Positions 4,105 through 28,979 of a stretch of DNA of 64,000 bases are shown here, piece by piece; position 1 is the stretch's first letter, and every line of letters starts with the position of its first letter. The stretch is taken from the IMG/VR virus record IMGVR_UViG_3300037067_024922, positions 28,766-92,765 of that record; one strand, written 5' to 3'. The position numbers and the translations under genes were made by a program. The notes beneath the pieces were generated by a model. It saw only the letters and a program-made list of their open reading frames with translations, made no database searches and had not been told where the DNA came from. Origin of the DNA: a virus. Its lineage: Duplodnaviria > Caudoviricetes.

Positions 4105-4911
4105 ATGATCAAGTTTGGTCTGATAGGCAATGGTAAGATTGCGCAACGTCATAAAAATGCAATTAAACATGTTGGTGGTGAATTGGTATGGGTGAGTGAT
4201 CCATTGTTAAAAGGACAAGAATTGATTGATGGGACCATATATCAAGGAGATATTCCTTTGTGTGATATGAAAGGATTAGAAGGAGTTTGGGGCAACCAAA
4301 TAGATTATGTTGTCATCTGTTCTCCGACATATCTCCATCGTCAGCAGACACAAGAAGCCTTGAAATATAATAAGCAAGTCATTTGCGAAAAGCCTCTCTG
4401 CTTACCTTGGGAGCCATTGATTGATGATGATAGGATCAATGTATGTCTACAGTTGCGCTACATTGAAAATCTTCCCAAGGCGGCAGATCTTGTCAGGGCG
4501 GTGATGGTCAGGGATGAGGAATTTTTCAAGTCATGGAAGGGAGACCCAAGACAAGCAGGAGGAAACCTGTATGAGTTTTTTATTCATTATATTGATCTTG
4601 CCATCTTGCTTGGCGCAGGTTTTGAAGGCAGCGTGTTGCCGGAAGGGAAGCAAGTAAGGGAAATAATTTTTAACAAAGAGGCTTGTCAAGGGCCAAGTAT
4701 TTCTCAAAATAAAGAATTTAAGCTGGACATCATGGCGATTGATATGCAATCCCTTTATAATCGCATGTATGAAGACATCTTGAATGGTGGCGGCATCAAG
4801 CCAAAGGATATTTTTTACCTCACCTGGGTGCTGAATCAGAACAGCATCAAGCATGGTTTCAGGAAGAGTGGGATTGATAGCCCAATCGTTTTAGGCAAGG
4901 AACTGTTATGA
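4105..4911 (+). CDS. Gfo/Idh/MocA oxidoreductase (WbpB/WlbA-like sugar 3-dehydrogenase)
   Basis: FGLIGNGKIAQRH, VICSPTYLH, ICEKPL, SWKGD...GG...IHYIDL; AGGAGG RBS before ATG 4105. Confidence 0.85.
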   Translation: MIKFGLIGNGKIAQRHKNAIKHVGGELVWVSDPLLKGQELIDGTIYQGDIPLCDMKGLEGVWGNQIDYVVICSPTYLHRQQTQEALKYNKQVICEKPLCLPWEPLIDDDRINVCLQLRYIENLPKAADLVRAVMVRDEEFFKSWKGDPRQAGGNLYEFFIHYIDLAILLGAGFEGSVLPEGKQVREIIFNKEACQGPSISQNKEFKLDIMAIDMQSLYNRMYEDILNGGGIKPKDIFYLTWVLNQNSIKHGFRKSGIDSPIVLGKELL

Positions 4912-5150
4912 TCAGCGATAAAGAGCTTACAACCGAAATGATGAAAATCATCGAGTCAGATGAGAGGTTGCGCACTGCTCGTAGAATATGTCACGATCTT
5001 CTCGGTTTTATACTTCATTTGATCAACCCCATATTGAAGCAAAGAGGATTTCCAGAGTGCGTTGTAATTGGTATCTCCGTATTTATTCCTAACAAGGACA
5101 CTAAAAAATCAGATGAGGTCATTGTTCAAGGACCTTCAACAATACAATAA
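4908..5150 (+). CDS. Hypothetical protein
   Basis: ATGA-coupled to the upstream gene. Confidence 0.55.
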   Translation: MISDKELTTEMMKIIESDERLRTARRICHDLLGFILHLINPILKQRGFPECVVIGISVFIPNKDTKKSDEVIVQGPSTIQ

Positions 5151-5204
5151 AATAGACGCAAAATTCCTGTTTAGGGATATAATATATTTGGAGAGGTGAG
5201 ATTA

Positions 5205-5783
5205 ATGAAAGTTCCTGATGCATATATTTGCCCAGATTGTGATGAAGTTTTTTCCTTTATAAGGACACCATTATCAAATCCGTCCCCTATTTGTCCGATC
5301 TGCGGTAATACGAACCTTTTGAGTCTTGGAAAGGTTCTCAACCGTAAGGAGGTCAAAAATGAAGATACTAACAATTTCTGTATCGGTGTTCTTGTTAGGG
5401 ATTCAGATTCTTGCCACGGTATTGATTGTGCAACCTGTGGTGCCCTTGAAAGCCCAAAACAAACTCCAGGCTGCCTCGATCAAAGTGGGGTTGGGAGATC
5501 CGGGCGACAAGGTGCTGAAGGCGGTATCAATGGCATCAAAGCAGACGGGATTGTCGGAATCGTTTCTTCTATCGCTGATGTACTCGGAATCCTCTTTCGA
5601 TCCAAAAGCAATATCAAGCAAGCATTATCAAGGATTAATGCAGATCCCGCCGAGCAACAACCATCTGCACCAGGAGGAGGATGTGAATACGCTGATCGGT
5701 GCGAAAATACTTTTAAGAAAGTTGGATGCCACCAAGGGGAATATAAGGAGCGCGATTGTTTTGTACAAGGGATGGCCGATTGA
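5205..5783 (+). CDS. Zn-ribbon protein; probably only the N-terminal ~50 aa is functional, the rest overlaps the SLT gene
   Basis: CPDC...CPICG after TATAAT and a GAGG RBS. Confidence 0.45.
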   Translation: MKVPDAYICPDCDEVFSFIRTPLSNPSPICPICGNTNLLSLGKVLNRKEVKNEDTNNFCIGVLVRDSDSCHGIDCATCGALESPKQTPGCLDQSGVGRSGRQGAEGGINGIKADGIVGIVSSIADVLGILFRSKSNIKQALSRINADPAEQQPSAPGGGCEYADRCENTFKKVGCHQGEYKERDCFVQGMAD

Positions 5784-5853
5784 TCACCCCGAAGGGAAAA
5801 GGCAAGCCGATAAGGTAATGAGATTGGCAAGGCTTTTGAAAAAGGAGGCATGA
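5359..5853 (+). CDS. Lytic transglycosylase (SLT domain) with N-terminal membrane anchor
   Basis: ESSFDPKAISSKHYQGLMQI motif; hydrophobic N-terminus; TAAGGAGG RBS. Confidence 0.85.
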   Translation: MKILTISVSVFLLGIQILATVLIVQPVVPLKAQNKLQAASIKVGLGDPGDKVLKAVSMASKQTGLSESFLLSLMYSESSFDPKAISSKHYQGLMQIPPSNNHLHQEEDVNTLIGAKILLRKLDATKGNIRSAIVLYKGWPIDHPEGKRQADKVMRLARLLKKEA

Positions 5854-6284: not shown

Positions 6285-6297
6285 AAGGAGGCATGAG

Positions 6298-6790: not shown

Positions 6791-6895
6791 AGGGCGGGGC
6801 ATGAGCGTGAGAGTTTTCAGAAAGCAGGGATAGGCTCGCTGACAAACCTGCCATAGCGCAATTGTCCCGCCCGACTTTGAAAGGAGAGAAGGAAC

Positions 6896-9970: not shown

Positions 9971-10696
9971 ATGAGAGCAGTTTTGATTGGATATGGCGAG
10001 GTTGGGAAAGGACTGTACGAAGTTCTTTCTTTCTATCACGAGATGGCGATTCATGATCCTGACCTTGAGTATTTGGCGTATGATGATTTTCTTGATCCCG
10101 ACCTGCTTCTTATTTCCATTCCATACAACGAGAAATTTATTGAGGTGGTGGGGAGATATCAATCATATTTTAAGCCAAAAGCGACAGTTGTTTTTTCCTC
10201 CGTCCCTGTCGGTACGTGCTCTTACCTTGGCGCAATACATTCTCCGATTGAAGGTCAACACGATAATATGGCCAAGTCAATCCGGGCATTCCCAAGATGG
10301 ATTGGAGGAGGAAGAGATTACTGGGAAATAGATCTTGCAGTAAATTTCTTCCTTCAAGCAGGATTGAAAATTGTAAGGGTTCAATCGGCGGACATAACAG
10401 AGTTCCTGAAACTTCAATCCACCACCATCTATGGCATCAACATTGAGTGGGCAAGGTACTGTAAGCAGGTGCTTGATAGTCTTGGGGCAGGTTATGAGAT
10501 GCTAAAAGATTACAATCGGCATTATAACAAGCTTGTCATGGAGAATGGGCAATGGGAATATCAGCGTTGCAATCTTGGTCCTCCTCCGGGGAAGATAGGA
10601 GGACATTGTGTTCTTCCCAATGCAAAGTTGCTGCAAAAGGGGTTTGGCCATTCATTTATACAGACGGTTTTGGATCTGAATGAGGCGAAGGAATGA
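9971..10696 (+). CDS. UDP-glucose/GDP-mannose dehydrogenase family protein (short form)
   Basis: IGYGEVG Rossmann motif, SSVPVGT, HSP, EFLKL, GKIGGHCV catalytic Cys motif; lacks the usual C-terminal UDP-binding domain. Confidence 0.85.
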   Translation: MRAVLIGYGEVGKGLYEVLSFYHEMAIHDPDLEYLAYDDFLDPDLLLISIPYNEKFIEVVGRYQSYFKPKATVVFSSVPVGTCSYLGAIHSPIEGQHDNMAKSIRAFPRWIGGGRDYWEIDLAVNFFLQAGLKIVRVQSADITEFLKLQSTTIYGINIEWARYCKQVLDSLGAGYEMLKDYNRHYNKLVMENGQWEYQRCNLGPPPGKIGGHCVLPNAKLLQKGFGHSFIQTVLDLNEAKE

Positions 10697-11136
10697 TCAA
10701 GGAATTTCAAGGTGAGTACAGATGGCTGAGTAATTTTTATCCCGTGGCTATACGATTTCAAGGCTGGTTATTTCCTTCGGTTGAACATGCTTATCAATCG
10801 GCCAAGTCAGATGACATTCACTGGAAGAGATTCTGTTTAAATCCTGATGTAAGAGCCGGAGAGGTGAAAAAGAGGTCGCATCATATCGCCGTAGTGCCAG
10901 GTTGGCGACAAGGTCGTTTGAAAATAATGGAGGAACTTGTAGATCTAAAATATGATCAGGAGCCTTTTAAGTCAAAACTGCTCGCTACGATGGAGGAGCA
11001 TATACAGGAAGGGAACTTCTGGTATGACACATTTTGGGGTGTTGATTTGAGAACAGGTCGGGGTGAGAATAATCTCGGCAAGATCATAATGGAGAAGAGA
11101 CAAAGACTGCAATACGTCTCATCGCAGGAGAGCTAA
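10693..11136 (+). CDS. NADAR (YbiA-like) family protein
   Basis: WLSNFYP, FPSVEHAYQSAK, LLAT, EGNFWYDTFWGV, GENNLGKIIM. Confidence 0.9.
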   Translation: MIKEFQGEYRWLSNFYPVAIRFQGWLFPSVEHAYQSAKSDDIHWKRFCLNPDVRAGEVKKRSHHIAVVPGWRQGRLKIMEELVDLKYDQEPFKSKLLATMEEHIQEGNFWYDTFWGVDLRTGRGENNLGKIIMEKRQRLQYVSSQES

Positions 11137-11137
11137 A

Positions 11138-11320
11138 ATGGATGTAAGTTCTGTTAGTAAAAATTCGATTAAAATTTTGGACTTTTTAAAAGGAACAGAT
11201 CTCAAGCCTGACGAGAAAATCGCCGCTCTTGATGTCGCATCGGCAACTATCAGGGCTGCTTTGTCCGCAGAAACCTTGAAGATTATGTGTGCAAACATTT
11301 TAGGAGGGAGACCGACATGA
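11138..11320 (+). CDS. Hypothetical protein
   Basis: GGAG RBS; tightly packed in operon. Confidence 0.5.
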   Translation: MDVSSVSKNSIKILDFLKGTDLKPDEKIAALDVASATIRAALSAETLKIMCANILGGRPT

Positions 11321-11571
11321 GCCGTTTGATTTTGATGTACCCAATTCCTTTTATTGAGGCCAATTGCATTTATGCCAAGACACAGAGGAAGTATTTGCCT
11401 TTGCCTGCTTATCGGCAGGAAGATGGTACGGTGACAACTTGCTGGAAGATGGGATTTCTGGAAAGACTGGAAGTCCTGTTATCGGGCAGAGTGTGGTTAA
11501 GTGTATCAACCTTTAATCAGCCCTTGCAGCCTTTGAGAATGATGATCAGGTCCCGGTTTAGGAGCCTGTAA
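11317..11571 (+). CDS. Hypothetical phage protein
   Basis: YAKTQRKYLPLPAY...TTCWK...TFNQPLQP; ATGA coupling. Confidence 0.6.
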   Translation: MSRLILMYPIPFIEANCIYAKTQRKYLPLPAYRQEDGTVTTCWKMGFLERLEVLLSGRVWLSVSTFNQPLQPLRMMIRSRFRSL

Positions 11572-11701: not shown

Positions 11702-12673
11702 ATGAATATAGCAATCATATCAGATTTTAACATTGGTGGCCAGCCAACAGCATTGATGAGGGCCATCAATAAATACACGGCTCATAAGGCTCGTTGTATC
11801 ATTGCTTACGATGATGGTTTTCAATACGATAAGGATATCATCCTCAATACGCCAGAGGCAAAAGAGGAGGCTGCTGAATGGTGCAGGCATGCTGACTTCT
11901 TTCATTTTGGTCGCATGATATTCAACTGGCCGGGAATTGATTTTAATACCCTTGTGAATTTTGATAATTGCTGTGTTAAATACTATGGTTCAGAGCTTCG
12001 GGATAATTTTGGGATAATCAGGAATTTCCATGAGAGGACAGGAGTTGTAGCAATCACAGGTACGGATTGGACAATCACCGGGAGATTGCCCAGTTCGTTT
12101 TATCATCTTGGTTCTTATTTCACGAAGTATGGGGACATGGATGAGAAAGACATCCCTTTGTGTGATCAGGGAGATCTCCTAAGGATTTGTGCGGGCTCTG
12201 CCGGATCTCCATTGAAGGGGTATGATTTGCTGCATCAGATTCTGAATGAGTCGAAGCAGGATATTGAATGGGAATTTATATCGCAGGTTTCAAATCAGGT
12301 CTGTCTTGAGAGGAAGCTGAAACACAATTGCACATTTACTTCTGTTCATGGGGGCTGGGGGATCAGCGGGATCGAGAGTATGTATCAGGGGCATGTGGTG
12401 TTGAGCTGTCTTGACCCTTGGATAATGTCAATGTATCCTGACAATCCAACCATCATTGTAACGAAAGACACCTTGAAGGGGAAGCTGAGGAATATGGCGG
12501 CTTGTCCTGAAATGAGACGATTGATCGGTCGGGAGAGCCGGGAATTCGCAATCAAAAATTTCAGCACCAAGACCATTTTGAAGAAATATCTGTACCTGAT
12601 TGATCTGATCATGAATAGGAAAAAGTATCTTGATGGAGGAAGTGTTCCGTCCATCATTTACAATGAGTTTTGA
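11702..12673 (+). CDS. GT-B fold glycosyltransferase (GT4-like)
   Basis: N-terminal IGG loop, YYGSELR, LKGYDLL, GWGISGIESMYQGHVV (E-x-M-x-x-G motif), C-terminal GRESREFAIKNFS. Confidence 0.75.
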   Translation: MNIAIISDFNIGGQPTALMRAINKYTAHKARCIIAYDDGFQYDKDIILNTPEAKEEAAEWCRHADFFHFGRMIFNWPGIDFNTLVNFDNCCVKYYGSELRDNFGIIRNFHERTGVVAITGTDWTITGRLPSSFYHLGSYFTKYGDMDEKDIPLCDQGDLLRICAGSAGSPLKGYDLLHQILNESKQDIEWEFISQVSNQVCLERKLKHNCTFTSVHGGWGISGIESMYQGHVVLSCLDPWIMSMYPDNPTIIVTKDTLKGKLRNMAACPEMRRLIGRESREFAIKNFSTKTILKKYLYLIDLIMNRKKYLDGGSVPSIIYNEF

Positions 12674-13257: not shown

Positions 13258-13767
13258 ATGTCATCAATCACAGTACAGCAATCCTCTACCACAGAATCTT
13301 CCTGTCCCAAAGATCCAATCATTCATTCCGCTACACAAATTTGGCATCCTCATCTTTGCAATATTTATGGCAATTGTATTATAGGCGCTCATTGTAACAT
13401 AGGTGCTTTTGTTGAAATCGGTCCTGGCGTTATCATTAAAGATTGGGTCAGGATTGGAGCCCATTGTTTTATACCAGAAGGGGTTACGATTGAGGAGGAT
13501 TGTTTTGTTGGGCCGGGAACTATTTTTTGTAACGATAGATATCCTCCTGGAGGAAAAGAGGCGTGGAGGCCTGTTCTCGTAAGGAAAAAGGCCAGTATCG
13601 GAGCAGGATCGGTTATTCTTCCGGGCGTGGAAATAGGGGAAGGTGCGATGATTGGCGCAGGGACAGTTGTGACAAGGAATATCCCTGCTGGATGGAGAGT
13701 TGTTGGCAATCCGGCCAGAAGAATATTGCCCCATATTATGAATTGTGAGAAGGGAGAAATTGTGTGA
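13258..13767 (+). CDS. Left-handed beta-helix N-acyltransferase (WbpD/WlbB/WxcM-like)
   Basis: Hexapeptide repeats, IWH, FCNDRYP, VVGNPAR. Confidence 0.9.
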   Translation: MSSITVQQSSTTESSCPKDPIIHSATQIWHPHLCNIYGNCIIGAHCNIGAFVEIGPGVIIKDWVRIGAHCFIPEGVTIEEDCFVGPGTIFCNDRYPPGGKEAWRPVLVRKKASIGAGSVILPGVEIGEGAMIGAGTVVTRNIPAGWRVVGNPARRILPHIMNCEKGEIV

Positions 13768-14939
13768 TACCATTCATAAAGCCATATTATGATGACGACG
13801 ATTTTAATGCAATCAAGCAGGTTCTTCAATCAGGTTGGGTTGCCCAAGGCCCAAAGGTAGAAGAATTTGAAGAAGCAGCAGCAAAGTATCTTGGCTGTAA
13901 ATATACGATCAGTGTATCCAATTGCACTACGGCATTGACATTGGCTTTGATGGCATTGGAGATTGGGCCGGGAGATGAGGTGATTGTGCCTGATTTTACA
14001 TTCCCCGCCACTGTGATTGCTGTTACAAATGTTGGGGCAACTCCTGTGCTGGTCGATGTCAATAGAGAAAATTACAACGTCTCTCCTCAGATGGTGGCTT
14101 TGGCAATCACAAGAAAAACAAAGGCCATTATTCCTGTTCATTTGTTTGGGCTGTCCTGTAACATGCACGAAATAAACAGCTTGGCGAGTACTTATGGCCT
14201 CTATGTGATTGAAGATGCCGCCTGTTCTCTTGGTACGGAAATAGATGTTTATGGCAGTGAAGACGAGGACCAATTAAAAGCAGGGACAATGAGTGATATA
14301 GGCTGTTTCTCTTTACAGGCCAGCAAAGGTATAACGACCGGAGAGGGTGGCCTTATTTGTACTAATGATTATGTGCTTGCAGACAGGATGAGAAGGCTAT
14401 CGTGCTTTGGTGATGAACGAACATTTCGCAGATCTTTATTCAAACAGATTAATTCTGCGGATGCTCCTTTCTATTTTGATCCCAAGGCAGGCAATTATAA
14501 AATGTCTGATATCACGGCGGCTCTTGCTTTGTCGCAACTGCGCAAGATCGAAAAGATGATAGATTGGAGAATTAAAATTGCCAAAGAATGGGATGAAGTG
14601 GTTAATGGAGATCCATTCTTGCGTTCGGTCATCATTTCCAAACCGGAGATCATGACAGATCATTCTCATATTTATCAATCATATGTTATGGTCTGCCAGC
14701 AGGGAAAACGACCGCTGGTTATGGAGTATTTCAAAGAGCATGGGTTTCAGACCGGGATTGGAACCCATGCCTGTAGTCGATATCCGAATTTGATGGAAAG
14801 ACAATCAAAAGGACAAGAAAGATTGCCGCCGATTCTTGATTGTGGAGTTTCAAATTATCTTTATGAAAATGCAATTTCGCTTCCGAGATATTATGGTCTT
14901 GAGGTTTTGAGGGAATGGAAGAAGGCAAAGCTAAAATAA
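13764..14939 (+). CDS. DegT/DnrJ/EryC1/StrS sugar aminotransferase
   Basis: GWVAQGPKV, VSNCTTAL, FTFPAT, VHLFG, IEDAA, SKGITTGEGG PLP-lysine motif. Confidence 0.95.
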   Translation: MIPFIKPYYDDDDFNAIKQVLQSGWVAQGPKVEEFEEAAAKYLGCKYTISVSNCTTALTLALMALEIGPGDEVIVPDFTFPATVIAVTNVGATPVLVDVNRENYNVSPQMVALAITRKTKAIIPVHLFGLSCNMHEINSLASTYGLYVIEDAACSLGTEIDVYGSEDEDQLKAGTMSDIGCFSLQASKGITTGEGGLICTNDYVLADRMRRLSCFGDERTFRRSLFKQINSADAPFYFDPKAGNYKMSDITAALALSQLRKIEKMIDWRIKIAKEWDEVVNGDPFLRSVIISKPEIMTDHSHIYQSYVMVCQQGKRPLVMEYFKEHGFQTGIGTHACSRYPNLMERQSKGQERLPPILDCGVSNYLYENAISLPRYYGLEVLREWKKAKLK

Positions 14940-15081: not shown

Positions 15082-15369
15082 ATGCCAAGTCCGGAAGAAA
15101 TGACTGTAGAGTATTTCAGGCTGATGCAAATAGCAGGCCGTCAGATCAGCCTGTCTACTACAGGCCACTTGTGGTTTTCTGAGAGAGAGTGGTGGATATT
15201 GCATGATCGTGGCCGGGATAGAACCTTCGGGATATTGGCAGATGGGAGAATCATTGAATATACAGAGATGATCTCCTTTGAAGCAATCATGGAAAATCCA
15301 GGAGACGTTTGCGGGTTTGCAGATGCAAGGTATTTGGGGATTGGCGAATTTCATCACTGGGAGAAATGA
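15082..15369 (+). CDS. Hypothetical protein
   Basis: AAGGAG RBS. Confidence 0.55.
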   Translation: MPSPEEMTVEYFRLMQIAGRQISLSTTGHLWFSEREWWILHDRGRDRTFGILADGRIIEYTEMISFEAIMENPGDVCGFADARYLGIGEFHHWEK

Positions 15370-15371
15370 CA

Positions 15372-16310
15372 ATGAAAAGAGCTCTGGTTGTTGGTGGCGC
15401 TGGATTTATAGGCAGCCATCTTGTTGATGCCCTGTTAAAGGAAGGGATAAAGGTATGCGTGGTTGATAATCTCTTTCTCGGCAAGGCTTCTAATTTGTCA
15501 AAAGAGGTTATGCTGCTCAGGATTGATGCTTGCAAAATTCATGCCCTTGATCAAGTCATATTGCAATTCAAGCCGGATACAATCTACAATCTTGCGGTGA
15601 TGCCTCTTCCCCATTCCATTGGCCGTCCTTACGAAAATGTCAGGACCAATATTAAGATCGTCCAGAATCTATGCGAGATCATGAAAGATGGCATTGTTAA
15701 AACTCTGATACAGTTTTCCTCTTCTGAGGTTTATGGGTCAGCCAAATATGAACCAATGTGCGAAGATCATCCTTGGAGGGCATCGACTCCGTATGCAGCC
15801 AGCAAGGCGGCAGGAGACATGATTTGCCTTTCATATTACAGGACATTTGGTTGTGATATCAAGATCCTTCGCCCATTCAACAATTATGGCCCTCGACAGA
15901 ATGCGGGATCATATGCCGGAATAATTCCAATTACAATAAACAGGATACGCAATGGAATGCCGCCGATTATTTTTGGGGACGGTCTTCAAACAAGGGATTA
16001 TATTTATGTCAAGGATACTGCGAGAGCAGCTGTGATGATTGGAAAAATGGAAGGGCTGAAAGGCGAGGTGATCAATATTGCCTCTGGCCATGACTATTCA
16101 ATCTTTTGGCTGGTTAAGGAGATCATGAGATTGATGCAGCATATAACTCCTTCTGTCGGTGAAATTGAATATCAGCCAGCCCGTTCAGGAGATATTCGGC
16201 GACATATCGCAAATGTTTTGAAGGCGAAAGATTTATTAGGATTTGAGCATCAGGTATCAATGGAAGAAGGCTTGGTAGGGACTATCGATTGGTACTTGAA
16301 AAATGGATAA
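15372..16310 (+). CDS. NAD-dependent nucleotide-sugar epimerase/dehydratase (extended SDR)
   Basis: GGAGFIG, SSSEVYG, YAASK, RPFNNYGPRQ, GDGLQTRDYIYV. Confidence 0.95.
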   Translation: MKRALVVGGAGFIGSHLVDALLKEGIKVCVVDNLFLGKASNLSKEVMLLRIDACKIHALDQVILQFKPDTIYNLAVMPLPHSIGRPYENVRTNIKIVQNLCEIMKDGIVKTLIQFSSSEVYGSAKYEPMCEDHPWRASTPYAASKAAGDMICLSYYRTFGCDIKILRPFNNYGPRQNAGSYAGIIPITINRIRNGMPPIIFGDGLQTRDYIYVKDTARAAVMIGKMEGLKGEVINIASGHDYSIFWLVKEIMRLMQHITPSVGEIEYQPARSGDIRRHIANVLKAKDLLGFEHQVSMEEGLVGTIDWYLKNG

Positions 16311-17577: not shown

Positions 17578-18639
17578 ATGAAAGTCGAATTGCTCAAGAT
17601 AGAAGATCTGGATGCTTACAAGGAGTATATTCTAAAACACGAAAGGTCTTCATTTTTCTCTTCTCTTGCATTCGGAGATTTCATACGTTCCATCTGCCCC
17701 AATGTTATCCCATATTATTTTGTAGCAAAAGAGCAAGAAAAGATCGTTGGTATATTGCCGTCGTTTGTGAAAAAGGGATTTCTTGGTCCTGTTCTAAATT
17801 CTATGCCTTGGTTTGGGAGCAACCCTGGGGTCCTTGCTGATGATGATACAATTGCCATCTTTCTGCTACAAGCCTTTAAGCAAACAGCCAAATGGACAGG
17901 CTGTTATTCTTCTACATTTATTGCTCCTCCCGTTGATAATGAGATCTATGATGTCTTTTTCAAACCGGAGCAGGAAGATGATGTCTTTTCAGATATGAGG
18001 ATCGGCTTGATCACGCCTCTTCCTGAGTTCAAAGAGCCTGAGCAGTTTTCATCTGAGCTCTTAAAGAAGGTTCATCAAAAGACAAGGAATCAGATAATCA
18101 AGGCAAGCAAGGAATGCATGGTGTATGAATCCTACGGCCAGGAGGATTGGGATTTTTTAAAAACCGTTCATAAGGATAATATCCAAGCTGTTGGTGGTGT
18201 CTCTAAGAACAAGGAGTTTGATATCATACAAAAGACTCTCAGAAAAAAGATTGACTATAAACTTTACGTGGCCATTGCCGATGATGACAGCGCGACACGG
18301 ATTGGGGCTTTGTTTGTTGAGTATTTTAATAAGACGGTGGAGTACATCACACCAGCCGTCGTGTCAGAATATCGCCATTTGTGTCCAATGAATCTCTTGA
18401 TCTTCTCGGCTATGGGTGATGCTGCTCAGAAAGGGATGAAGTGGTGGAATTGGGGCGGGACAAATATTCCCCAGCAGGAAGGGCTTTATCATTTCAAAAA
18501 AAGATTTGGTGCAGAGGAATCCAAGTACAGATATTACACGCAAATCTATGGTGCGCCTCTGCTTGATATTTCCAAGAAACAGATATTGGAAGGATATCCA
18601 TTTTTTTATGTCCTTCCATTTTCTCTTTTGGGAAAATGA
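17578..18639 (+). CDS. FemAB-like / GNAT acyl- or aminoacyl-transferase
   Basis: SMPWFGS, KTRNQIIKA, WWNWGGT...GLYHFKKRFGA. Confidence 0.8.
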   Translation: MKVELLKIEDLDAYKEYILKHERSSFFSSLAFGDFIRSICPNVIPYYFVAKEQEKIVGILPSFVKKGFLGPVLNSMPWFGSNPGVLADDDTIAIFLLQAFKQTAKWTGCYSSTFIAPPVDNEIYDVFFKPEQEDDVFSDMRIGLITPLPEFKEPEQFSSELLKKVHQKTRNQIIKASKECMVYESYGQEDWDFLKTVHKDNIQAVGGVSKNKEFDIIQKTLRKKIDYKLYVAIADDDSATRIGALFVEYFNKTVEYITPAVVSEYRHLCPMNLLIFSAMGDAAQKGMKWWNWGGTNIPQQEGLYHFKKRFGAEESKYRYYTQIYGAPLLDISKKQILEGYPFFYVLPFSLLGK

Positions 18640-19228: not shown

Positions 19229-19249
19229 AAAATAGAATTGGAGAAATCA

Positions 19250-20152
19250 ATGGCAAAGGTTTTGATTACAGGCGGCAAGGGATTTATAGGAAGATATCTG
19301 TCCCGTATGATGAGGGCTGAGGGATGGTATGTGGTAGATGCAGACCATAATGAGCTTGATGTGACAAGGCCGGAAACCTTTGATTGGCTCAGAGGGGCCA
19401 ACTTTGATGCTATTGTTCATTTGGCCGCCCTCTTGATGATCGATGGCAACAAATATAAACCCGTGGACTATTTCAAGGTCAATACCATTGGCACTTTTAA
19501 TGTGTTGGAGTTCTGTCGCAAAGAAGGGATACCCACCTTGATTTATGCAATGACGCACTCGGATGTAAATGCAAGAGGACCCATAATATCTCCTCATTGT
19601 GAACATTCATTTGTAACAGGATCTTGGGAAAACAACTCTGTCCCTTTTATATCTTCGAAGATTGCTGCTGCCGATATGATTGAATCTTATAGCTTGAGTG
19701 GGGTCATTAGGGGGGTTATCCTCCGCTTGGCAAACATCCGGGGATATGGAAGTCGTGATGAGAAATACAATTGTGTGTTTCATCAGTTCATTCAAAAAGC
19801 ATTGAGAGGCGAGTCGATTGAGATCTGGGGCGACCCTCCTAAAACAGTCAGGGATCTGATATATGTGAAGGATGTTTGTTCTGCGATTATGGCAGCAATA
19901 TCGGAAGAATCAGAAGAAGGATATTTTAACATCGGCTCCGGAGTTGGTTTGACCATTGAGGATGAGGCCAAGGCGATCCTAAAAGTGTTTGGCAAAGAAG
20001 GTAGCGGCCTGATTTATCGTTCAGACATTCCGGAGGTCAGAAAGACCAGTTGTGTTTTTGATACCGGAGAGGCTTGTTTGAGTTTGGGCTGGGCTCCGGA
20101 ATATGATTATGTTCAAGCAATGATGGATTACAAGAAAGAAGCCGGACTATAA
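19250..20152 (+). CDS. NAD-dependent epimerase/dehydratase-like SDR with FxxxK instead of YxxxK
   Basis: GGKGFIG, HLAA, NTIGTFNVLE, PFISSK, RDLIYVKDV, FNIGSG. Confidence 0.85.
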   Translation: MAKVLITGGKGFIGRYLSRMMRAEGWYVVDADHNELDVTRPETFDWLRGANFDAIVHLAALLMIDGNKYKPVDYFKVNTIGTFNVLEFCRKEGIPTLIYAMTHSDVNARGPIISPHCEHSFVTGSWENNSVPFISSKIAAADMIESYSLSGVIRGVILRLANIRGYGSRDEKYNCVFHQFIQKALRGESIEIWGDPPKTVRDLIYVKDVCSAIMAAISEESEEGYFNIGSGVGLTIEDEAKAILKVFGKEGSGLIYRSDIPEVRKTSCVFDTGEACLSLGWAPEYDYVQAMMDYKKEAGL

Positions 20153-20182: not shown

Positions 20183-21649
20183 ATGAATTTTATACCAGAT
20201 ACAAAAGGGCTTTTTTATGAGAAGCAGAGAAATAAATGGGCAATGATTGAAGCTCTCCTTGGAGGAGAGGAGGCAATCAAAGAGGCTGGTAAATTGTATT
20301 TGCCGCAATTGTCCGGGCAAACTGAAACACAGTATAAGACATATAGAGACAGGGGAAGCTTTTTTAATGCATTCGCAAGGACGATAACAGGATTGACAGG
20401 TGCCATAATCCGCAAGGAGCCTTCTATCAAGACAAGCCCAGAAATTGATAAATCGCTTTCATCGATCACGCTTGCAGGAGAATCAATTCAGGAAGTGATT
20501 AGGATGATCACCCAGGAGGTTCTCTCGTATGGATATTACGGCATTTTGGTCGATATGCCTTTTGTGGCTGAAGATAAAATATCACCTACCAATACAAATC
20601 CGTATTTTGCTTTGTATCCCTGCGCATCGATTTTGAATTGGGAGACAGTACAGGTTGGTGATGAGTCAAAATTGATTATGCTGACCTTGGCCGAGACTGT
20701 TTATAAGAAGGACCCTGAAAATGTTCTTTCCCTTATCGCAGTAGATCAGGTCAGGCTTCTTAACATAGACAAGCAAGGTGTTTTGGTTGTAAGTATATTC
20801 CAAAAAATTGAGAAGCCAAACAAGCAAGGTGATGCTGAATGGGTTCAGTATGGAGACGATATTTATCCAAAAGTGAGAGGGAAAAACATGGATCATATTC
20901 CCTTTGTCTTTTTTGGGGCAGTATCAAACAATCCCATTCCGACTGCACCTCCTTTGGTGGATCTCGCCAATTTGAATATAAAGCATTGGCAAGTCAATGT
21001 TGATTATTATCACGGCCTTCATTTTTGTGCAATGCCGACTCCTTGGGCATCAGGATTTGGCAAGGAAACAGATTTGTATGTCGGATGCGAGAAGGCTTGG
21101 GTTTCTGATGATCCTCAAGCGCAGTGTGGGTTCCTTGAATTTACAGGAACCGGTCTTGGCGCGATAGAAAAAGCATTGGATAAACTTGAGTGCCAAATGG
21201 CCATTATGGGAGCAAGGATGCTCGAAGAGCAGAAGAAGGCAGCCGAAGCGGCAGAAACTGTGGTGATGAGATATTCGGGTGATACCGCGACATTGTCAAG
21301 CATCGTTACCTCTGTTGAGCAAGGGGTCATCAAAGCAATTGATCTGATCGGTGATTGGAAGGGGATTGAAGCAAAGACAGAGGTCAGGATGAATAGAGAT
21401 TTTGTATCCATCAAGCTCTCTGCTCAGGACATCACGGCTCTGCTTCAGGCAAGACAGGCTGGCGAGATCAGCCAGGGCACTTTCCTGTACAACTTGCAGG
21501 TCGGTGAGATCCTGCCGCCTGATAGGACAATTGAAGACGAAAAGGCTTTGATTGAAAACGAATACAATGCCTTTTCCAGCAAGCGTATGTATGATGAGGA
21601 TGGCAACGAGATTGATGAAAATGGGAACATCATAACTCCTGCAGAATAG
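20183..21649 (+). CDS. Portal protein (DUF4055-type)
   Basis: YLPQL, RTITGLTG, IPFVFFG, PPLVDLANLNIKHW, MAIMGARML; size and position. Confidence 0.9.
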   Translation: MNFIPDTKGLFYEKQRNKWAMIEALLGGEEAIKEAGKLYLPQLSGQTETQYKTYRDRGSFFNAFARTITGLTGAIIRKEPSIKTSPEIDKSLSSITLAGESIQEVIRMITQEVLSYGYYGILVDMPFVAEDKISPTNTNPYFALYPCASILNWETVQVGDESKLIMLTLAETVYKKDPENVLSLIAVDQVRLLNIDKQGVLVVSIFQKIEKPNKQGDAEWVQYGDDIYPKVRGKNMDHIPFVFFGAVSNNPIPTAPPLVDLANLNIKHWQVNVDYYHGLHFCAMPTPWASGFGKETDLYVGCEKAWVSDDPQAQCGFLEFTGTGLGAIEKALDKLECQMAIMGARMLEEQKKAAEAAETVVMRYSGDTATLSSIVTSVEQGVIKAIDLIGDWKGIEAKTEVRMNRDFVSIKLSAQDITALLQARQAGEISQGTFLYNLQVGEILPPDRTIEDEKALIENEYNAFSSKRMYDEDGNEIDENGNIITPAE

Positions 21650-24796: not shown

Positions 24797-24809
24797 AAAA
24801 GGTGATTAA

Positions 24810-25124: not shown

Positions 25125-25237
25125 TATCAGCATTCTGTTGGCTGTAAAAATAAACGGTTGTGATGAAGAAATATCTTTTATTTTGTAAAAATAACAATTA
25201 TAATCACCTTAACAAAAAACCGGGAGGAGGAAAATAT

Positions 25238-26005
25238 ATGGCATTGAAGTTGGTTATCGACAAGTTGGAGGACGTTGCGGAGGGTCTTCGCGATCAGTAT
25301 AAGCTGGCCGGAGATGGCAAATTTCACCTTCAAACAGACGAGGACATGGAATCCAAGAAAAAGATCGAGGAGTTCCGAACCACCAATATCACTTTGATGA
25401 AGAAGCAGAAGGAGTTGGAGGATCAGCTGAAGGATCTTGGCGATCCAAAAGAGATCGTGGCCATGAGGCAAAAGATCCAGCAGATCGAAGACAAAAAATT
25501 GATCGAAGCCGGGAAGCTTGATGAACTCGTTGAGCAGAAGGTTGAGCGGATGCGGAACGATTTCCAAGCCCAGCTCGAAGCCTTAAAAAAGGCAAACGAG
25601 ACCAAGGAGGCCGAGCTTCAGAAAACCACCGCCAGATTGTCTGAAGTCCTGATTGATTCGGAGATCACCAAGGCCGTGACTGCTGTGGGCACTGTTCGGA
25701 AAGACGCCATGCAGGATATTATCTCCAGAGGGAAGAGGGTATGGCGGCTCGAAGATGGCAAGCCCATTCCAAAAGATGGGGACAAGCTCCTGTTTGGCAA
25801 GGACGGGAAAAATCCTCTGACATTTGAGGAATGGGCAATGATCCTTTCTCAGACAGCCCCGTTTCTATTTGAAACGACAACCGGTGGCGGCGGGACAGGT
25901 GGTCAGCATCAGGATCTTTCTAAAGGCAAGGAGGATCTGTCAAAGATCAGTCCTGAGGAAAGATTGAAAAGAATCCATGAGAGGCAAGACCAGAAGAAGG
26001 CATAA
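25238..26005 (+). CDS. Capsid scaffolding protein
   Basis: MALKLVIDKLEDV start, coiled coil, PFLF..GGGG tail; upstream of the MCP. Confidence 0.85.
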   Translation: MALKLVIDKLEDVAEGLRDQYKLAGDGKFHLQTDEDMESKKKIEEFRTTNITLMKKQKELEDQLKDLGDPKEIVAMRQKIQQIEDKKLIEAGKLDELVEQKVERMRNDFQAQLEALKKANETKEAELQKTTARLSEVLIDSEITKAVTAVGTVRKDAMQDIISRGKRVWRLEDGKPIPKDGDKLLFGKDGKNPLTFEEWAMILSQTAPFLFETTTGGGGTGGQHQDLSKGKEDLSKISPEERLKRIHERQDQKKA

Positions 26006-26244
26006 GAAGCAGACATAACTTCCTATCACATATCTTTGCGGCGCGAAGCGATCTGATGGGAAGAATCCATGAGAGGTAGGTATGATAAAAGGCTCGGTGA
26101 GCCGAAAGAGTAAATAAAATTAGTTTCAAAGCGGAGCAGCGAAACGAGATCCCGGTGGGATTTAACCTTAATTGGTTTTATTCTGCCGGGATTTTTGTTT
26201 GCGGAGAATGAACCAGAAAATTCAAGAATAGGAGGTTGGAAAAA

Positions 26245-27183
26245 ATGGCACTGACACTTATCGAAGCTGCAAAAGAAGCATTGGGAAGGGATGAAGATCT
26301 TCAGGCGACAGTCATGCAGCTGTTTGCAAAAAACAGCGATGTTCTGTTGAACATGCCTTTTGAAAACATCCAGGGGAATGCACTCAAGTTCAACAGGGAG
26401 AAAATGCTTCCTGGGGTTGCATTCAGGGGCGTAAACGAGGCCTACACGGAAAGCACCGGAGAGCTCGAGCCGGTCGTTGAATCTCTGGCCATTGCCGGAG
26501 GCGATCTGGATGTCGATGTCTTCTTGGTGAAGACCGGTGGGGCCAACCAGCGAGGGACTCAGGAAGGGCTCAAGATCAAGGCTTTGTCCCTGAGTTTGAC
26601 AAAAGCGATGATCAAGGGAGATGTGACCTCTGATCCGAAGTCCTTCGATGGATTGCAGGTCCGTTGTACCGGAGATCAGCTCATCGAGTCATCGGCAACC
26701 ACGATCTATGCAGCTTTGTCTCTGGCCAAGCTGGACGAGACAATTGACGCGGTGGAGGATGCGACCCATCTGCTGATGAACAAGACAATGCGTCGGTTGC
26801 TTTCGGCAGCGGCCAGAAGCGCATCTGTCGGTGGGTACATCACCTACGATCTGGATGCATTCGGTCGCAGGGTGACGCGATACAATGATCTTCCGATTAT
26901 GATCGCGGACAAGGATGAGGACAACTCGGACATCATGGCCTTTGACGAGCTTGGTCCTTCGACCTCAACCAAGGCGACATCAACTTCCATTTACTGCATC
27001 AGCTTTGCACCGAATGGGGTGATGGGGCTTCAGTCCTCGCCGATGGATGTCAGGGATCTCGGAGAGCAGCAGGATAAGCCTGTCTACAGGACGAGGGTTG
27101 AGTGGTATCTCACTCTCGGAATGTTGCGGCCACGTGCTGCTGCTCGGCTGCGTGGGATCAAGAATACCACGGTGGCGGTGTAA
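26245..27183 (+). CDS. Major capsid protein
   Basis: MALTLIEAAK, LPGVAFRGVNE, GGDLDVD, FDGL, YRTRVEWY, AAARLRGI (resembles BPP-1-type capsid proteins). Confidence 0.92.
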   Translation: MALTLIEAAKEALGRDEDLQATVMQLFAKNSDVLLNMPFENIQGNALKFNREKMLPGVAFRGVNEAYTESTGELEPVVESLAIAGGDLDVDVFLVKTGGANQRGTQEGLKIKALSLSLTKAMIKGDVTSDPKSFDGLQVRCTGDQLIESSATTIYAALSLAKLDETIDAVEDATHLLMNKTMRRLLSAAARSASVGGYITYDLDAFGRRVTRYNDLPIMIADKDEDNSDIMAFDELGPSTSTKATSTSIYCISFAPNGVMGLQSSPMDVRDLGEQQDKPVYRTRVEWYLTLGMLRPRAAARLRGIKNTTVAV

Positions 27184-27247
27184 TCATCATCTTTTGGTGG
27201 TGATCTTGATTTTGTTTTATAAAAAATAACAGAAGGAGGTATCAGAC

Positions 27248-27730
27248 ATGTTGGATAATAGGAAAGTGATCATCGATGATGAATTGCTCATCGCGGATAC
27301 CGGCTCGGCGGCAATCGATGCCACGGCGGCGGCAACAGTTGATGCTGTGGCCAAGGTCATCGACACCGGTGGCGGTCTTACAAAAGGGATGTTTGTTGTT
27401 GATGTTGCCTCTATCGCAGGTAGCGGTCAGGCAACCAACTGCCAGCTGATCCAGGTGGAGCTGGAAGGATCAACGACAAGCACATTTACGGCATGGGTTC
27501 GGCTGGCGGGATTCCGGCTCGGGCCAGTGGCTGTCGGCCATGGAAGACAGTCCGCGGATGCTTCGGCGGCATCGTCCACCACCGGTCGTTATATGACGCC
27601 GTTCCATAACGACTTCCACGGTACGGTGTATCGTTGGCTGAGGGTTTATGTAACCTTCAATGGATCGGCAAACGCTGCCGTTCAGACTCCGACAATCAAG
27701 TTCAAGGCTTGGCTGTCGAAGTTGTCATAA
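27248..27730 (+). CDS. Capsid cement/decoration protein, Ala/Thr/Ser-rich
   Basis: Immediately after the MCP; beta-rich; YRWLRVYVT C-terminal pattern. Confidence 0.7.
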   Translation: MLDNRKVIIDDELLIADTGSAAIDATAAATVDAVAKVIDTGGGLTKGMFVVDVASIAGSGQATNCQLIQVELEGSTTSTFTAWVRLAGFRLGPVAVGHGRQSADASAASSTTGRYMTPFHNDFHGTVYRWLRVYVTFNGSANAAVQTPTIKFKAWLSKLS

Positions 27731-27749
27731 GGAAAGGAGCAAGCATACA

Positions 27750-28979
27750 ATGAAAACCGGGATTTTATTGTCAGCCTGCATGATAGTAAAAAATGAGGAG
27801 AAAAATCTTGAGCGATGCCTGAAGTCGATTAAGAAATTGGTCGATGAGATCGTGGTGGTGGATACCGGCTCAACAGATCAGACCGTGTCGATAGCAAAAC
27901 ATTTTGGAGCACGGGTCTACCATCACGAGTGGCAAAATGATTTTTCTCTTCATCGTAACCAGGCAATCTCTTATGCTCAAGGTCGGTGGGTAATGACGAT
28001 CGATGCAGATGAGGAACTCGTTTTGGAAAACAATGTGGACAACAAACAGATCCGGGAATTTCTCAGATCAATGGATAATCGATATCCTGCTGTGTGTATT
28101 ACTTTCCATGATATCCAGAAGGGGAGCGATATTCTCCAATTCAACTCTGCCCGGATTTTTCGGAGAGGCTTAGTTGAATACAAAGGGATGGTTCATAATC
28201 AGCCAACATTGAAGATCGAAGGGAACTCGGTCTTCTGTCCGGGAATCCATTTGAAGCATTACGGATACGATCTTACGCCAGAGCAGAAAGCGGCTAAATT
28301 TGAAAGGACGCATACCCTGCTCATGAAGCAGATCGAGACCGGCCAGATGGACGATATGCTCCCATACTTTTTCCTGTCCCAGCTTTATGCTGACAATCAG
28401 CAGATTCATGAGTCGGTGGCTTGGGCGGAGAAGTATTGGGAGAACAAAGACAAGATTGAAAAGAGCCATTTTTGTGACTCTGTTTATTTCACCACAACCA
28501 GACAATACATGAAAATTGGAGATCGTGATAAGGCATATGAATGGTTGACCAGAGGGATTGCGGCTCTTCCTGGCGATCTGGATATGGCTCTTATTGCTCT
28601 TGAGTTTGGAGTTTGGACAAAAAATACTGACCTTCAAATTCAGGCCTGCAAGGATTTCCTTCTTTCATATAGCCTGTTTCAGAAGAATCCGATGATGAAG
28701 GGTAACAGATTTGTCTATGCATTAAGACCAGAGGCATTGGCTTATGTCTACCTTCATCAGACGTTGTCGCAAATAAAGGACGGAACTCAGGCGCTGATGA
28801 ATTTGATGAAGCTGATCCCGAGCCTGCACCCTTCTTATGGCCAAGGGATGATGAAGACCTTAGAAGAGGAGCTTTCAACCTCAGCATTTCCTGTTCATTT
28901 TGTAAAAGATTTGGCGGAGAGTCCGGTGGGAGATCTAAAGGACAAGAAAGAAAATTTTGTATCGTCAACAATTCATTGA
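27750..28979 (+). CDS. GT2 glycosyltransferase with helical TPR-like C-terminus
   Basis: SACMIVKNEE, VVVDTGSTD, WQNDFSLHRN, IDADE (DxD), VHNQ, HYGY. Confidence 0.92.
   Translation: MKTGILLSACMIVKNEEKNLERCLKSIKKLVDEIVVVDTGSTDQTVSIAKHFGARVYHHEWQNDFSLHRNQAISYAQGRWVMTIDADEELVLENNVDNKQIREFLRSMDNRYPAVCITFHDIQKGSDILQFNSARIFRRGLVEYKGMVHNQPTLKIEGNSVFCPGIHLKHYGYDLTPEQKAAKFERTHTLLMKQIETGQMDDMLPYFFLSQLYADNQQIHESVAWAEKYWENKDKIEKSHFCDSVYFTTTRQYMKIGDRDKAYEWLTRGIAALPGDLDMALIALEFGVWTKNTDLQIQACKDFLLSYSLFQKNPMMKGNRFVYALRPEALAYVYLHQTLSQIKDGTQALMNLMKLIPSLHPSYGQGMMKTLEEELSTSAFPVHFVKDLAESPVGDLKDKKENFVSSTIH

Follow-up and report, generated by a model that had tools for sequence, protein, structure and literature searches.

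A rare-sugar gene cassette and a capsid-linked glycosyltransferase gene in an uncultured phage: a candidate system for glycosylating its own head

Gene content of the terminase-to-capsid region

The window analysed here, a stretch of 64,000 nucleotides, belongs to the 92.8-kb (~93 kb) genome of an uncultured phage from landfill and groundwater habitats. It opens within the large terminase gene (TerL; 1..779, + strand, the 3′ part of a 460-aa ORF whose whole gene occupies genome positions 28162-29544), the upstream boundary of an island of sugar-related genes. Copies of TerL in relatives are 60-77% identical and also lie 5′ of the cassette, whose downstream boundary is the portal gene (20183..21649, +; DUF4055, 3e-36). 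All ten enzyme types that an earlier note had read from this DNA were recovered on the + strand, at or near the positions first given, in the interval that runs from the terminase end (779) to the gene that follows the capsid cement gene; the last of them, a GT2, starts at 27750 in the database call rather than at 27660. Two of these, a 6-dehydrogenase and a GT-B transferase, are recognised by structure or language model, not by Pfam.

Four genes form the core of the putative pathway. The Gfo/Idh/MocA oxidoreductase (GFO; 4105..4911, +; PF01408, 4e-14), a proposed UDP-sugar 3-dehydrogenase, is WbpB-like: WbpB is its top PDB match (3oa2, 6e-12), the EKP motif is kept, and relatives' copies are 50-63% identical. 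The LbH N-acetyltransferase (13258..13767, +; Hexapep, 7e-22) is WbpD-like and of the QdtC/WlbB (3-amino-sugar) class, with 4mzu, 7s3u, QdtC (3fs8) and WlbB (3mqg) as best PDB matches; three of these four top solved relatives, including QdtC and the WbpD orthologue WlbB, we take to be 3-N-acetyltransferases of nucleotide-linked 3-amino sugars. For the DegT/DnrJ/EryC1 PLP sugar aminotransferase (DegT; 13764..14939, +; PF01041, 8e-91), which matches ArnB (3e-50) and WbpE (9e-45) in the PDB, a WbpE-like role is proposed.

The fourth, a short UDP-sugar 6-dehydrogenase-like protein (short UGDH; 9971..10696, +), is assigned from language model, structure and motifs. It has 241-251 aa in two domains, no C-terminal UDP-binding domain, and no Pfam match even when searched genome-wide at E ≤ 1. 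It retains GYGEVG and an invariant IGGHC motif, and compared with viral and cellular UDPG_MGDP_dh clusters it reaches 0.99 by language model and a TM of 0.79-0.87 by structure; its profile matches UDP-glucose dehydrogenase 3vtf at an E of only 0.037. Both its missing UDP-binding domain and its failure in sequence-based family tests leave the uronic-acid step uncertain. The earlier note had called the match of these four enzyme types to WbpA/B/E/D established, which was too strong: specific support extends to the WbpB-like and WbpD/WlbB-like assignments only, the WbpA-like protein being truncated and very divergent, and DegT scoring alike against ArnB, PseC and WbpE, with the 4-aminotransferases (ArnB, PseC) equal or better.

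Tailoring genes follow. SDR1 (15369..16310, +; Epimerase, 2e-59; SSSEVYG...YAASK) is an extended, epimerase- or decarboxylase-like SDR without the Asp-Glu pair of RmlB-type 4,6-dehydratases, which argues against a 4-amino-4,6-dideoxy sugar route. Next comes a fusion of a WbmS-like N-deacetylase with an LpxD-like LbH N-acyltransferase (16303..17520, +; PDB matches WbmS 3hft, 1.5e-19, and LpxD, 3.7e-15); in relatives the deacetylase is a stand-alone gene 5′ of the portal gene. SDR2 (19238..20152, +; Epimerase, 2e-38) has the SDR fold with a conserved Phe in place of the catalytic Tyr, and we propose that it is a non-redox epimerase or an accessory protein. The FemAB-family transferase (17578..18639, +; PF02388, 4e-11) has TIGR03019 (2e-19) as its sole NCBIfam match, the family to which VimA also belongs by match (PMC7468200). 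In P. gingivalis and T. forsythia, VimE and VimA convert the Wbp product into a 2-N-aminoacyl sugar (PMC7468200), and the pairing of deacetylase and FemAB mirrors this Wbp/Vim ‘linking sugar’ logic, a point beyond the earlier note.

Two small conserved ORFs, both without a Pfam match, complete the set: one of 94 aa (11287..11571, +), with copies 47-48% identical in the relatives G002 and G004, and one of 95 aa (15082..15369, +), with copies 38-73% identical, which usually occupies the interval between DegT and SDR1 and, in three distant loci, precedes the short UGDH instead. A WbpI-type 2-epimerase (PF02350) is absent. Variable genes, such as NADAR, also occur within the island.

The cassette has its own soluble glycosyltransferase of GT-B (GT4-like) type (11702..12673, +). 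It has no Pfam match; its AF2 model (pLDDT 90.6) resembles the GT4 GT-B enzymes PimA (Foldseek, 1e-10), PglA and BshA. The family comprises 83 proteins, seven of them fused to TPR repeats; these fusions point to a protein acceptor for GT-B, which we propose as the transferase for the cassette's sugar.

The capsid block and conservation of gene order

Beyond the portal gene lie the genes for the scaffolding protein (25160..26005, +; phrog_206, 3e-33) and for two candidate glycan acceptors. The first is a major capsid protein (MCP) of BPP-1/GP7 type (26236..27183, +; phrog_212, 3e-82; PF20911), which among cultured phages comes closest to those of Microcystis and the phiCbK-like group (51-54% identity). 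The second is a Bbp16-like jellyroll capsid cement/decoration protein (27248..27730, +; AF2 pLDDT 80), with the Carin1 capsid chain (8cjz_A) and BPP-1 Bbp16 (3j4u_H) as best folds; in distant loci the equivalent ORF matches Pfam Bbp16. Two results count against glycosylation of the head: a Ser/Thr-rich loop of the MCP is equally present in a relative without the downstream transferase, and no enrichment of a G-x-T sequon was found.

Directly behind the cement gene is a soluble GT2 with a helical TPR-like tail (27750..28979, +; PF00535, 3e-23), a protein glycosyltransferase of GmaR/SunS type. Its best solved relatives are GmaR (1.3e-31), SunS (5.5e-22) and a SunS-like enzyme, each a soluble transferase that acts on protein or peptide; GT2 matches TIGR04195 at 3e-25 and stays under the SunS family cut-off (89 versus 350 bits). 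The DADEE motif is invariant, and homologues bear TPR Pfam domains. The order MCP, cement, GT2 was found in 42 of 61 informative viral loci, and distant lineages show MCP(GP7), Bbp16, x, GT2, GFO, LbH, adaptor. Distant phages with GT2, GFO and LbH have no DegT, so in these a WbpB role for GFO and a WbpD role for LbH do not necessarily follow.

Using a GT-B profile, we gathered 16 IMG/VR loci, and in all 16, as far as the contigs allow, the order is TerL, GFO, short UGDH, GT-B, LbH, DegT, small ORF, SDR1, FemAB, SDR2, (deacetylase), portal. The short UGDH lies 5′ of GT-B in 15 of the 16, that is, in every one with enough upstream DNA. Four relatives (G001-G004), two of them 100% complete, share this order at 35-79% amino-acid identity. 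In the records with a completeness of 81% or more, DegT never occurs without GT-B or GT-B without DegT: five have the pair and eight have neither. The cassette is one conserved operon, and co-occurrence in related phages, a check proposed by the earlier note, showed the genes together and syntenic.

Predicted pathway and alternative explanations

The enzyme set fits the Wbp route with two further enzymes, a deacetylase and a TIGR03019-type FemAB protein, like those that extend it in Porphyromonas (Wbp/Vim); a 2-N-(amino)acyl-3-N-acetyl-2,3-diamino-uronic acid is predicted as its product. Substrates and step order are likewise predictions. A common UDP-HexNAc, most likely UDP-GlcNAc, would be oxidised at C6 by the short UGDH-like enzyme and at C3 by the WbpB-like GFO, transaminated at C3 by DegT, and N-acetylated on the 3-amine by the QdtC/WlbB-class LbH, giving UDP-2,3-diacetamido-2,3-dideoxy-hexuronic acid. 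The WbmS-like deacetylase would then free the 2-amine, on which the VimA-like FemAB enzyme would put an amino acid; the LpxD-like domain fused to this phage's deacetylase may also acylate it, with an acyl chain. The two SDR proteins would set the stereochemistry.

Both soluble transferases would glycosylate a virion protein in the cytoplasm during assembly, with acceptor and division of labour again predicted. The gene for GT2-TPR directly follows those for capsid and cement and is kept in relatives without the cassette; its product is probably the enzyme that places the first sugar on the cement or the capsid protein. GT-B occurs solely where the cassette does and is probably what adds the rare sugar.

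A rare-sugar operon thus stands with two soluble protein-type glycosyltransferases, one encoded directly behind the capsid and cement genes, and therefore the most likely reading is a phage that coats its particle with a sugar of its own making. That it encodes a self-contained protein-glycosylation system for its head is, in our judgement, somewhat more probable than not, on comparative evidence: the observed gene content, folds, family matches, conserved order, co-occurrence and absence of membrane steps. The earlier note had preferred a cytoplasmic, probably virion, target over host O-antigen, and every comparative test that we ran agrees with it, GT2 being of GmaR/SunS type and locked to the MCP and cement genes.

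Remodelling of the host surface seems rather unlikely. Here the phage nucleotide sugar would reach LPS, capsule, S-layer, flagellin or pili via host membrane transferases or the phage's soluble ones, blocking superinfection or changing the cell during infection. Host transferases could use such a sugar, and all characterised pathways of this chemistry (Wbp, Wlb/Wbm, Wbp/Vim) supply cell-surface glycans (PMC7468200, PMC10622841); GmaR, the closest solved relative of GT2, modifies flagellin, a host-type protein, and the relative G011 is classed as a provirus. However, as the earlier note had it, flippase, polymerase and polyprenyl-phosphate transferase are absent. Every pathway enzyme and both transferases have zero TM segments, and across the whole 92.8-kb genome no + strand ORF has more than three TM-like segments. 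No integrase was found either, so lysogenic conversion is unlikely. Moreover, the cassette shares its strand with the late head genes and lies inside their block, and GT2 stays with MCP and cement across lineages otherwise diverged beyond recognition.

Two unrelated systems, which we consider improbable, would have GT2-TPR glycosylate the head with an ordinary host sugar, while the terminase-portal cassette and GT-B serve another purpose, for example a soluble metabolite, another virion part such as the tail, or anti-defence. Six complete genomes (G016, G017, G021, G022, G024, G029) do carry GT2 without GT-B or DegT, 7.5 to 24 kb separate GT2 from the cassette upstream, and the island holds variable genes such as NADAR; yet all records found to bear the cassette also have the MCP-cement-GT2 block wherever the contig reaches, distant lineages place GFO and LbH directly 3′ of GT2 in the head module, and the TPR-fused relatives suggest a protein acceptor for GT-B too.

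A second possible glycan target, beyond those in the earlier note, is 7-deazaguanine DNA with its own glycosyltransferase: a radical-SAM gene adjoins a 333-aa ORF in the 7-deazaguanine DNA operon region (genome 4.8-10.4 kb). This DNA is an unlikely target, and it is very doubtful that the rare sugar is the donor for the glycosyltransferase of this dpd-type operon and so reaches virion DNA, for although that enzyme needs a donor and glycosylated phage DNA bases are known (PMC13326640), it is missing from G002 and G004, both 100% complete with the full cassette, and the cassette brings a GT-B of its own and moves together with head genes rather than with the replication/modification module.

Comparison with known systems

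The novelty lies in a complete rare-sugar pathway carried by a phage, and in its conservation; in the literature searched, we found no earlier demonstration of a phage coating its own particle with a self-made sugar, and no phage counterpart to the autonomous glycosylation of giant viruses. Chloroviruses and Mimivirus likewise encode a nucleotide-sugar pathway and transferases for their own capsid or fibrils (PMC9614988). These are, however, eukaryotic large DNA viruses, with enzymes and sugars unrelated to those of the phage. Among giant-virus sugars are viosamine, bacillosamine and rhamnose.

The enzyme logic is shared with the Wbp/Vim ‘linking sugar’ pathway of P. gingivalis and Tannerella forsythia (Veith et al. 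2020, PMC7468200), where WbpA/B/E/D-type steps yield a 2,3-diacetamido uronic acid, a deacetylase frees the 2-amine, and VimA (TIGR03019-type, FemAB-like) adds Ser or Gly to a product that ends covalently on proteins. That system is cellular and periplasmic, the sugar residing in A-LPS and a T9SS sortase joining it to protein C-termini (PMC7468200), whereas the phage has soluble transferases. In place of VimE, a CE4 esterase, the phage has a WbmS-like deacetylase; it differs further in its truncated two-domain dehydrogenase, in two extra SDRs and in the LpxD-like acyltransferase of this genome.

The phage set is also related to the O-antigen pathways of Pseudomonas aeruginosa (Wbp) and Bordetella (Wlb/Wbm) (WbpA/B/E/D/I; WlbA-D; WbmS; PMC10622841). 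Among solved structures, its GFO is closest to WbpB, its LbH to 3-N-acetyltransferases including WlbB, and its deacetylase to WbmS; its DegT matches WbpE at 9e-45. Unlike these pathways, it has no WbpI-type 2-epimerase or membrane assembly genes, and its WbpA equivalent lacks the UDP-binding domain.

The Listeria flagellin O-GlcNAc transferase GmaR and the glycocin S/O-glycosyltransferases SunS/ThuS have, as the phage GT2 does, a soluble GT2 domain followed by a helical TPR-type domain, and act on folded protein or peptide in the cytoplasm; unlike them, the phage GT2 is encoded in a capsid operon. The mycobacteriophages Che8 and Rita reportedly have their glycosyltransferase genes towards the right end of the genome and draw on nucleotide sugars of the host. 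In these phages the transferases modify the major capsid protein, and a glycan coat forms (Freeman et al. 2023, via PMC11256854). Here, in contrast, the phage itself encodes the full rare-sugar pathway, with the transferase gene inside a BPP-1-type head module.

The sugar-enzyme cassette and its conservation

The earlier note had read ten enzyme types at 4105-28979 as a candidate self-contained virion glycosylation system, and we found that all ten are real, eight of them being borne out by Pfam or NCBIfam. Those eight are a Gfo/Idh/MocA oxidoreductase (GFO, 4105-4911, PF01408 4e-14), an LbH acyltransferase (13258-13767), a DegT aminotransferase (13764-14939, DegT family 8e-91), two SDR proteins (SDR1, 15369-16310, and SDR2, 19238-20152), a WbmS-like deacetylase fused to an LpxD-like LbH domain (16303-17520, WbmS-like domain 2e-35), a FemAB-family protein (17578-18639, PF02388 4e-11, above the Pfam cut-off) and a GT2 glycosyltransferase (27750-28979, PF00535 3e-23). 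The other two have no Pfam match and were recognised otherwise: a short two-domain dehydrogenase-like protein (9971-10696) by language model and structure, and a GT-B glycosyltransferase (11702-12673) by its predicted structure. The plus strand carries all of these, as it does all genes of the window.

The large terminase is the 460-aa ORF with its end at 779, and the island from terminase to portal (20183-21649) is accordingly 19.4 kb long. GT2 lies 7.5 kb past the island, after the scaffold, the capsid gene and one small gene. Promoter and terminator scans returned terminator-like sites at chance level, none of which clearly divides the cassette from the head genes. The stretch at 4.9-9.9 kb consists of variable small genes outside the conserved set. 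Directly 3′ of the terminase gene, the ORF at 838-2439 (533 aa) is without Pfam or PHROG match, and a 47% identical copy is found at a different place in the related record G004. A small DUF488 protein of the N3a subclade (3370-3702) has a 60% identical copy in the related record G002. The NADAR-domain gene at 10693-11136 (PF08719, 1e-14) is located within the sugar island here and elsewhere in G004; because NADAR proteins are ADP-ribose-processing enzymes, it may be an anti-defence gene without relation to the sugar pathway.

The cassette is one unit. In four related virus records (G001-G004, two of them 100% complete) the genes follow the shared order GFO, short dehydrogenase, small ORF, GT-B, LbH, DegT, small ORF, SDR1, FemAB, SDR2, deacetylase and portal, with cassette proteins 40-79% identical. 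Furthermore, a profile scan for the GT-B family found 16 viral loci having the same neighbours in the same order wherever the contig allows, and of the 13 GT2-bearing records with a completeness of 81% or more, five have both GT-B and DegT and eight have neither. The co-occurrence in related phages on which the earlier note made its reading depend is thus borne out. The deacetylase-LbH fusion is peculiar to this phage: a scan of viral contigs with this one protein gave no match, and relatives have a stand-alone deacetylase.

The 92,765 bp record is rated complete by CheckV, and about 150 nt are repeated at both genome ends, which indicates a genome that is whole and permuted. DNA nearly identical to it was present in metagenomes of three studies, from landfill (2018) and groundwater (2022), and no RNA data with the phage were found among public runs. 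Upstream of the window (genome 11457-14846; locus L094), a uracil-DNA-glycosylase-superfamily domain (PF03167, 1e-20) sits at the C-terminus of a DNA polymerase III alpha-type replicase, which is notable alongside the 7-deazaguanine operon of the same phage.

Predicted chemistry of the sugar

Four of the enzymes had been matched to the WbpA/B/E/D route to UDP-2,3-diacetamido-2,3-dideoxy-uronic acids. Judged by solved relatives, this match stood for a WbpB-like GFO and a WbpD/WlbB-like LbH, and was left less specific for the other two. The best PDB match of GFO is WbpB (3oa2, 6e-12) and its EKP motif is present, suggesting at family level a 3-dehydrogenase of the WbpB-type Gfo/Idh/MocA class. 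The best four PDB matches of LbH are 4mzu, 7s3u, QdtC (3fs8) and WlbB (3mqg). We take 4mzu (FdtD-like), QdtC and WlbB to be N-acetyltransferases for nucleotide-linked 3-amino sugars, WlbB being the Bordetella orthologue of WbpD; 7s3u is annotated as an N-acetyltransferase. LbH is therefore a probable small 3-N-acetyltransferase of the WbpD/WlbB class. For DegT, the scores of ArnB, PseC and WbpE are similar and do not discriminate between C3 and C4, and the names of its homologues are generic.

The truncated dehydrogenase is the weakest link of the proposed pathway. WbpA is a three-domain UDP-GlcNAc 6-dehydrogenase with a catalytic Cys. The phage protein is about 240 aa long (241) and has two domains, with a Rossmann GYGEVG motif and an invariant IGGHC motif; the C-terminal UDP-binding domain is missing. 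Language-model features (0.99) and structure (TM 0.79-0.87) both match it to clusters with UDPG_MGDP_dh domains, the profile E against the solved UDP-glucose dehydrogenase 3vtf being only 0.037. A small ORF at 11287-11571, a candidate for the missing domain, gave no Pfam signal at E<=1. The dehydrogenase-like protein falls within a group of clusters of like length, most of them viral, and we know of no function assigned to this widespread truncated form.

The Wbp pathway has WbpI, whereas this phage has two SDR proteins instead, and a search of its whole genome gave no non-hydrolysing UDP-sugar 2-epimerase of the WbpI type (PF02350). SDR1 reads SSSEVYG...YAASK and is without the Asp-Glu pair of RmlB-type 4,6-dehydratases, whose motif is T-D-E or T-D-K as against S-S-E here. 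A bacillosamine-like 4-amino-4,6-dideoxy route (4,6-dehydratase, 4-aminotransferase, 4-N-acetyltransferase) is therefore disfavoured, as it also is by the grouping of LbH with 3-N-acetyltransferases. SDR2 keeps the NAD-binding glycine motif, with Phe replacing the catalytic Tyr (PFIxSK) and MTHSD replacing the usual Ser/Thr motif; both replacements are conserved in all four relatives, and SDR2 may be a non-redox SDR.

Beside the Wbp-like genes stand a deacetylase, the domain of which matches Bordetella WbmS, and a FemAB protein whose only NCBIfam match is TIGR03019 (2e-19, under the family cut-off), as in the Wbp/Vim extension of Porphyromonas gingivalis, and both are conserved in relatives. 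VimA matches TIGR03019, the same family as the phage FemAB, and adds serine or glycine, which yields the sugar linking secreted proteins to the cell surface (Veith et al., PMC7468200). The phage set mirrors the Wbp/Vim logic, in which Wbp-like steps would come first, the deacetylase second and the FemAB-like transferase third, with the two SDRs fixing the sugar configuration; the deacetylases differ, however, VimE belonging to the CE4 family and the phage enzyme to another, WbmS-like one. Because of this shared logic, our best guess is that the product would be a UDP-2-N-(amino)acyl-3-N-acetyl-2,3-diamino-2,3-dideoxy-hexuronic acid.

Transferases and their linkage to head genes

The GT-B model (AF2, pLDDT 90.6) matches PimA, PglA, BshA and MshA, which are GT4-type, with a Foldseek probability of 1.00, and predicts a GT4-like glycosyltransferase with two Rossmann-like domains and a C-terminal nucleotide-sugar binding motif. 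In seven proteins of this GT-B family TPR repeats, the hallmark of protein-directed transferases, are joined to the transferase.

The best solved relatives of GT2 are GmaR (1.3e-31) and SunS (5e-22), followed by a SunS-like enzyme, all of them soluble enzymes acting on proteins or peptides, GmaR being the Listeria flagellin O-GlcNAc transferase. GT2 shares the GmaR/SunS-type build, namely a GT2 domain with a DxD motif, a C-terminal TPR-like helical domain and no membrane segment. Its DADEE motif is invariant in 23 homologues, no TM window was found in it, and many of its 4,072 database relatives have TPR domains.

A protein or peptide acceptor for GT2 is predicted from its gene neighbourhood. 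Of 79 viral loci encoding a GT2 relative, 61 extend far enough upstream to be judged; a capsid gene is located at most 2.5 kb upstream in 42 of these, and a homologue of the 160-aa cement ORF (27248-27730) is directly upstream in 37. This ORF is predicted to fold as a jellyroll, its best two matches being capsid accessory chains of phage Carin1 (8cjz_A) and the BPP-1 cement protein Bbp16 (3j4u_H) at TM 0.5-0.6; the window protein has no Pfam match, and the equivalent ORF in loci L063 and L069 matches Pfam Bbp16. The major capsid protein (MCP, 26236-27183) carries PF20911 and is of the BPP-1/GP7 type, with Microcystis phage Mwe-JY26 and phiCbK-like Caulobacter and Brevundimonas phages as nearest cultured relatives (51-54% identity). 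The arrangement, a GP7-family MCP gene with that of a jellyroll cement protein next to it, is that of a BPP-1-type capsid.

More distant phages have, one after another, MCP (GP7), Bbp16 (by Pfam), one ORF, GT2, GFO, LbH and head-tail adaptor, an order that places two sugar enzymes right behind the transferase and inside the head module. Six loci (L062, L063, L066, L069, L070 and L081), from phages of 140-190 kb in which DegT is absent throughout, have this GT2-GFO-LbH block flanked by the cement and adaptor genes.

Prediction of a complex between GT2-TPR and the cement protein scored 0.00, which gives no verdict either way, and G-x-T sequons in the structural proteins were not enriched (55 observed, 55.9 expected). 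A Ser/Thr-rich MCP loop (residues about 240-252) was discarded as a glycosylation marker, the loop being equally small and polar in Mwe-JY26, which is without GT2 after the capsid gene.

A hairpin with a T-rich tail lies at 27183-27204, immediately after the capsid gene stop, and may be an attenuator lowering the expression of cement protein and GT2 relative to the capsid gene. The MuF-like head-morphogenesis gene (21669-24065, 798 aa) contains a Hint/intein domain with an inserted DUF559/MTES_1575 endonuclease; relatives L007 and L017 have the long form and most others a short, apparently intein-free one.

Target of the sugar and comparison with known systems

Membrane segments are absent from every cassette enzyme and transferase, and no ORF of the genome has more than three, so the phage cannot itself build or export a lipid-linked glycan. 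This extends to the whole genome the earlier note's remark that no flippase, polymerase or undecaprenyl transferase is visible. With no multi-TM ORF and no PF00589 integrase found in the phage, the membrane transferase, the flippase or polymerase and the signs of a temperate lifestyle that mark O-antigen or capsule lysogenic-conversion modules are lacking. Host-surface remodelling is nevertheless possible, as host enzymes could use a phage-made sugar, but it leaves the linkage to the head module without explanation.

It is also possible that the sugar has a dual use in this phage and serves DNA hypermodification through the glycosyltransferase of the 7-deazaguanine operon, in the region of which (genome 4.8-10.4 kb) a radical-SAM gene adjoins a 333-aa ORF. 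That transferase is, however, missing from two complete relatives with the whole cassette, which argues that the cassette is independent of the DNA system; it is present in the related record G005, whose contig breaks exactly at the expected place of the cassette. The cassette and GT2 may serve different ends, but GFO and LbH adjoin GT2 in distant phages and TPR-fused forms of GT-B exist, both of which speak against it.

Taken together, several independent observations on genes and their neighbourhoods point to a virion protein as the target, and we lean, by a little, towards a phage-encoded glycosylation of virion proteins. More tentatively, and with the odds against so specific a reading, the BPP-1-type heads of an environmental siphophage clade would be coated with a 2,3-diamino-uronic acid that bears an amino acid (a "linking sugar" of the Wbp/Vim type), made wholly by the phage's own enzymes and put in place by its two soluble transferases. 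A model consistent with the gene distribution has GT2-TPR, which complete genomes lacking the cassette also encode, as the ancestral and widespread head-protein transferase; one subclade would have added the cassette, together with the GT-B belonging to it, to elaborate the glycan with a rare sugar.

If correct, virion glycosylation of this kind would account for the "cell-wall sugar" genes in structural operons of many uncultured phages, and would supply a defined, testable group of eight to ten soluble proteins with which Wbp/Vim-type sugars could be synthesised and joined to proteins. Two enzyme classes still to be explored would come with it: UDP-sugar dehydrogenases of two domains, which are widespread in viruses, and SDRs that lack the catalytic tyrosine. 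With a glycan coat on the capsid, particles might differ in stability, in how they adsorb to surfaces other than the host and in how grazers or immune systems recognise them, effects that are also relevant to phage engineering.

To our knowledge, the only phage particles experimentally shown to be glycosylated are those of a few mycobacteriophages. The giant viruses with autonomous, virus-encoded glycosylation are algal and amoebal. Virion glycosylation by phage transferases is known in mycobacteriophages, as summarised in PMC11256854, and autonomous glycosylation in giant viruses (PMC9614988). In the literature searched, no phage is described with a complete Wbp/Vim-like rare-sugar pathway in a conserved late-region operon plus protein-type transferases, and nothing relevant was found on phage capsid or cement genes neighboured by a GmaR-like or TPR transferase, nor on diacetamido sugars on phage capsids. 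On the linking-sugar reading, this would be the first bacteriophage with a self-sufficient route to a glycoprotein, and, if the phage does encode every step between a common precursor and a rare charged sugar on the capsid, autonomy of the kind known in giant viruses would exist among bacteriophages.
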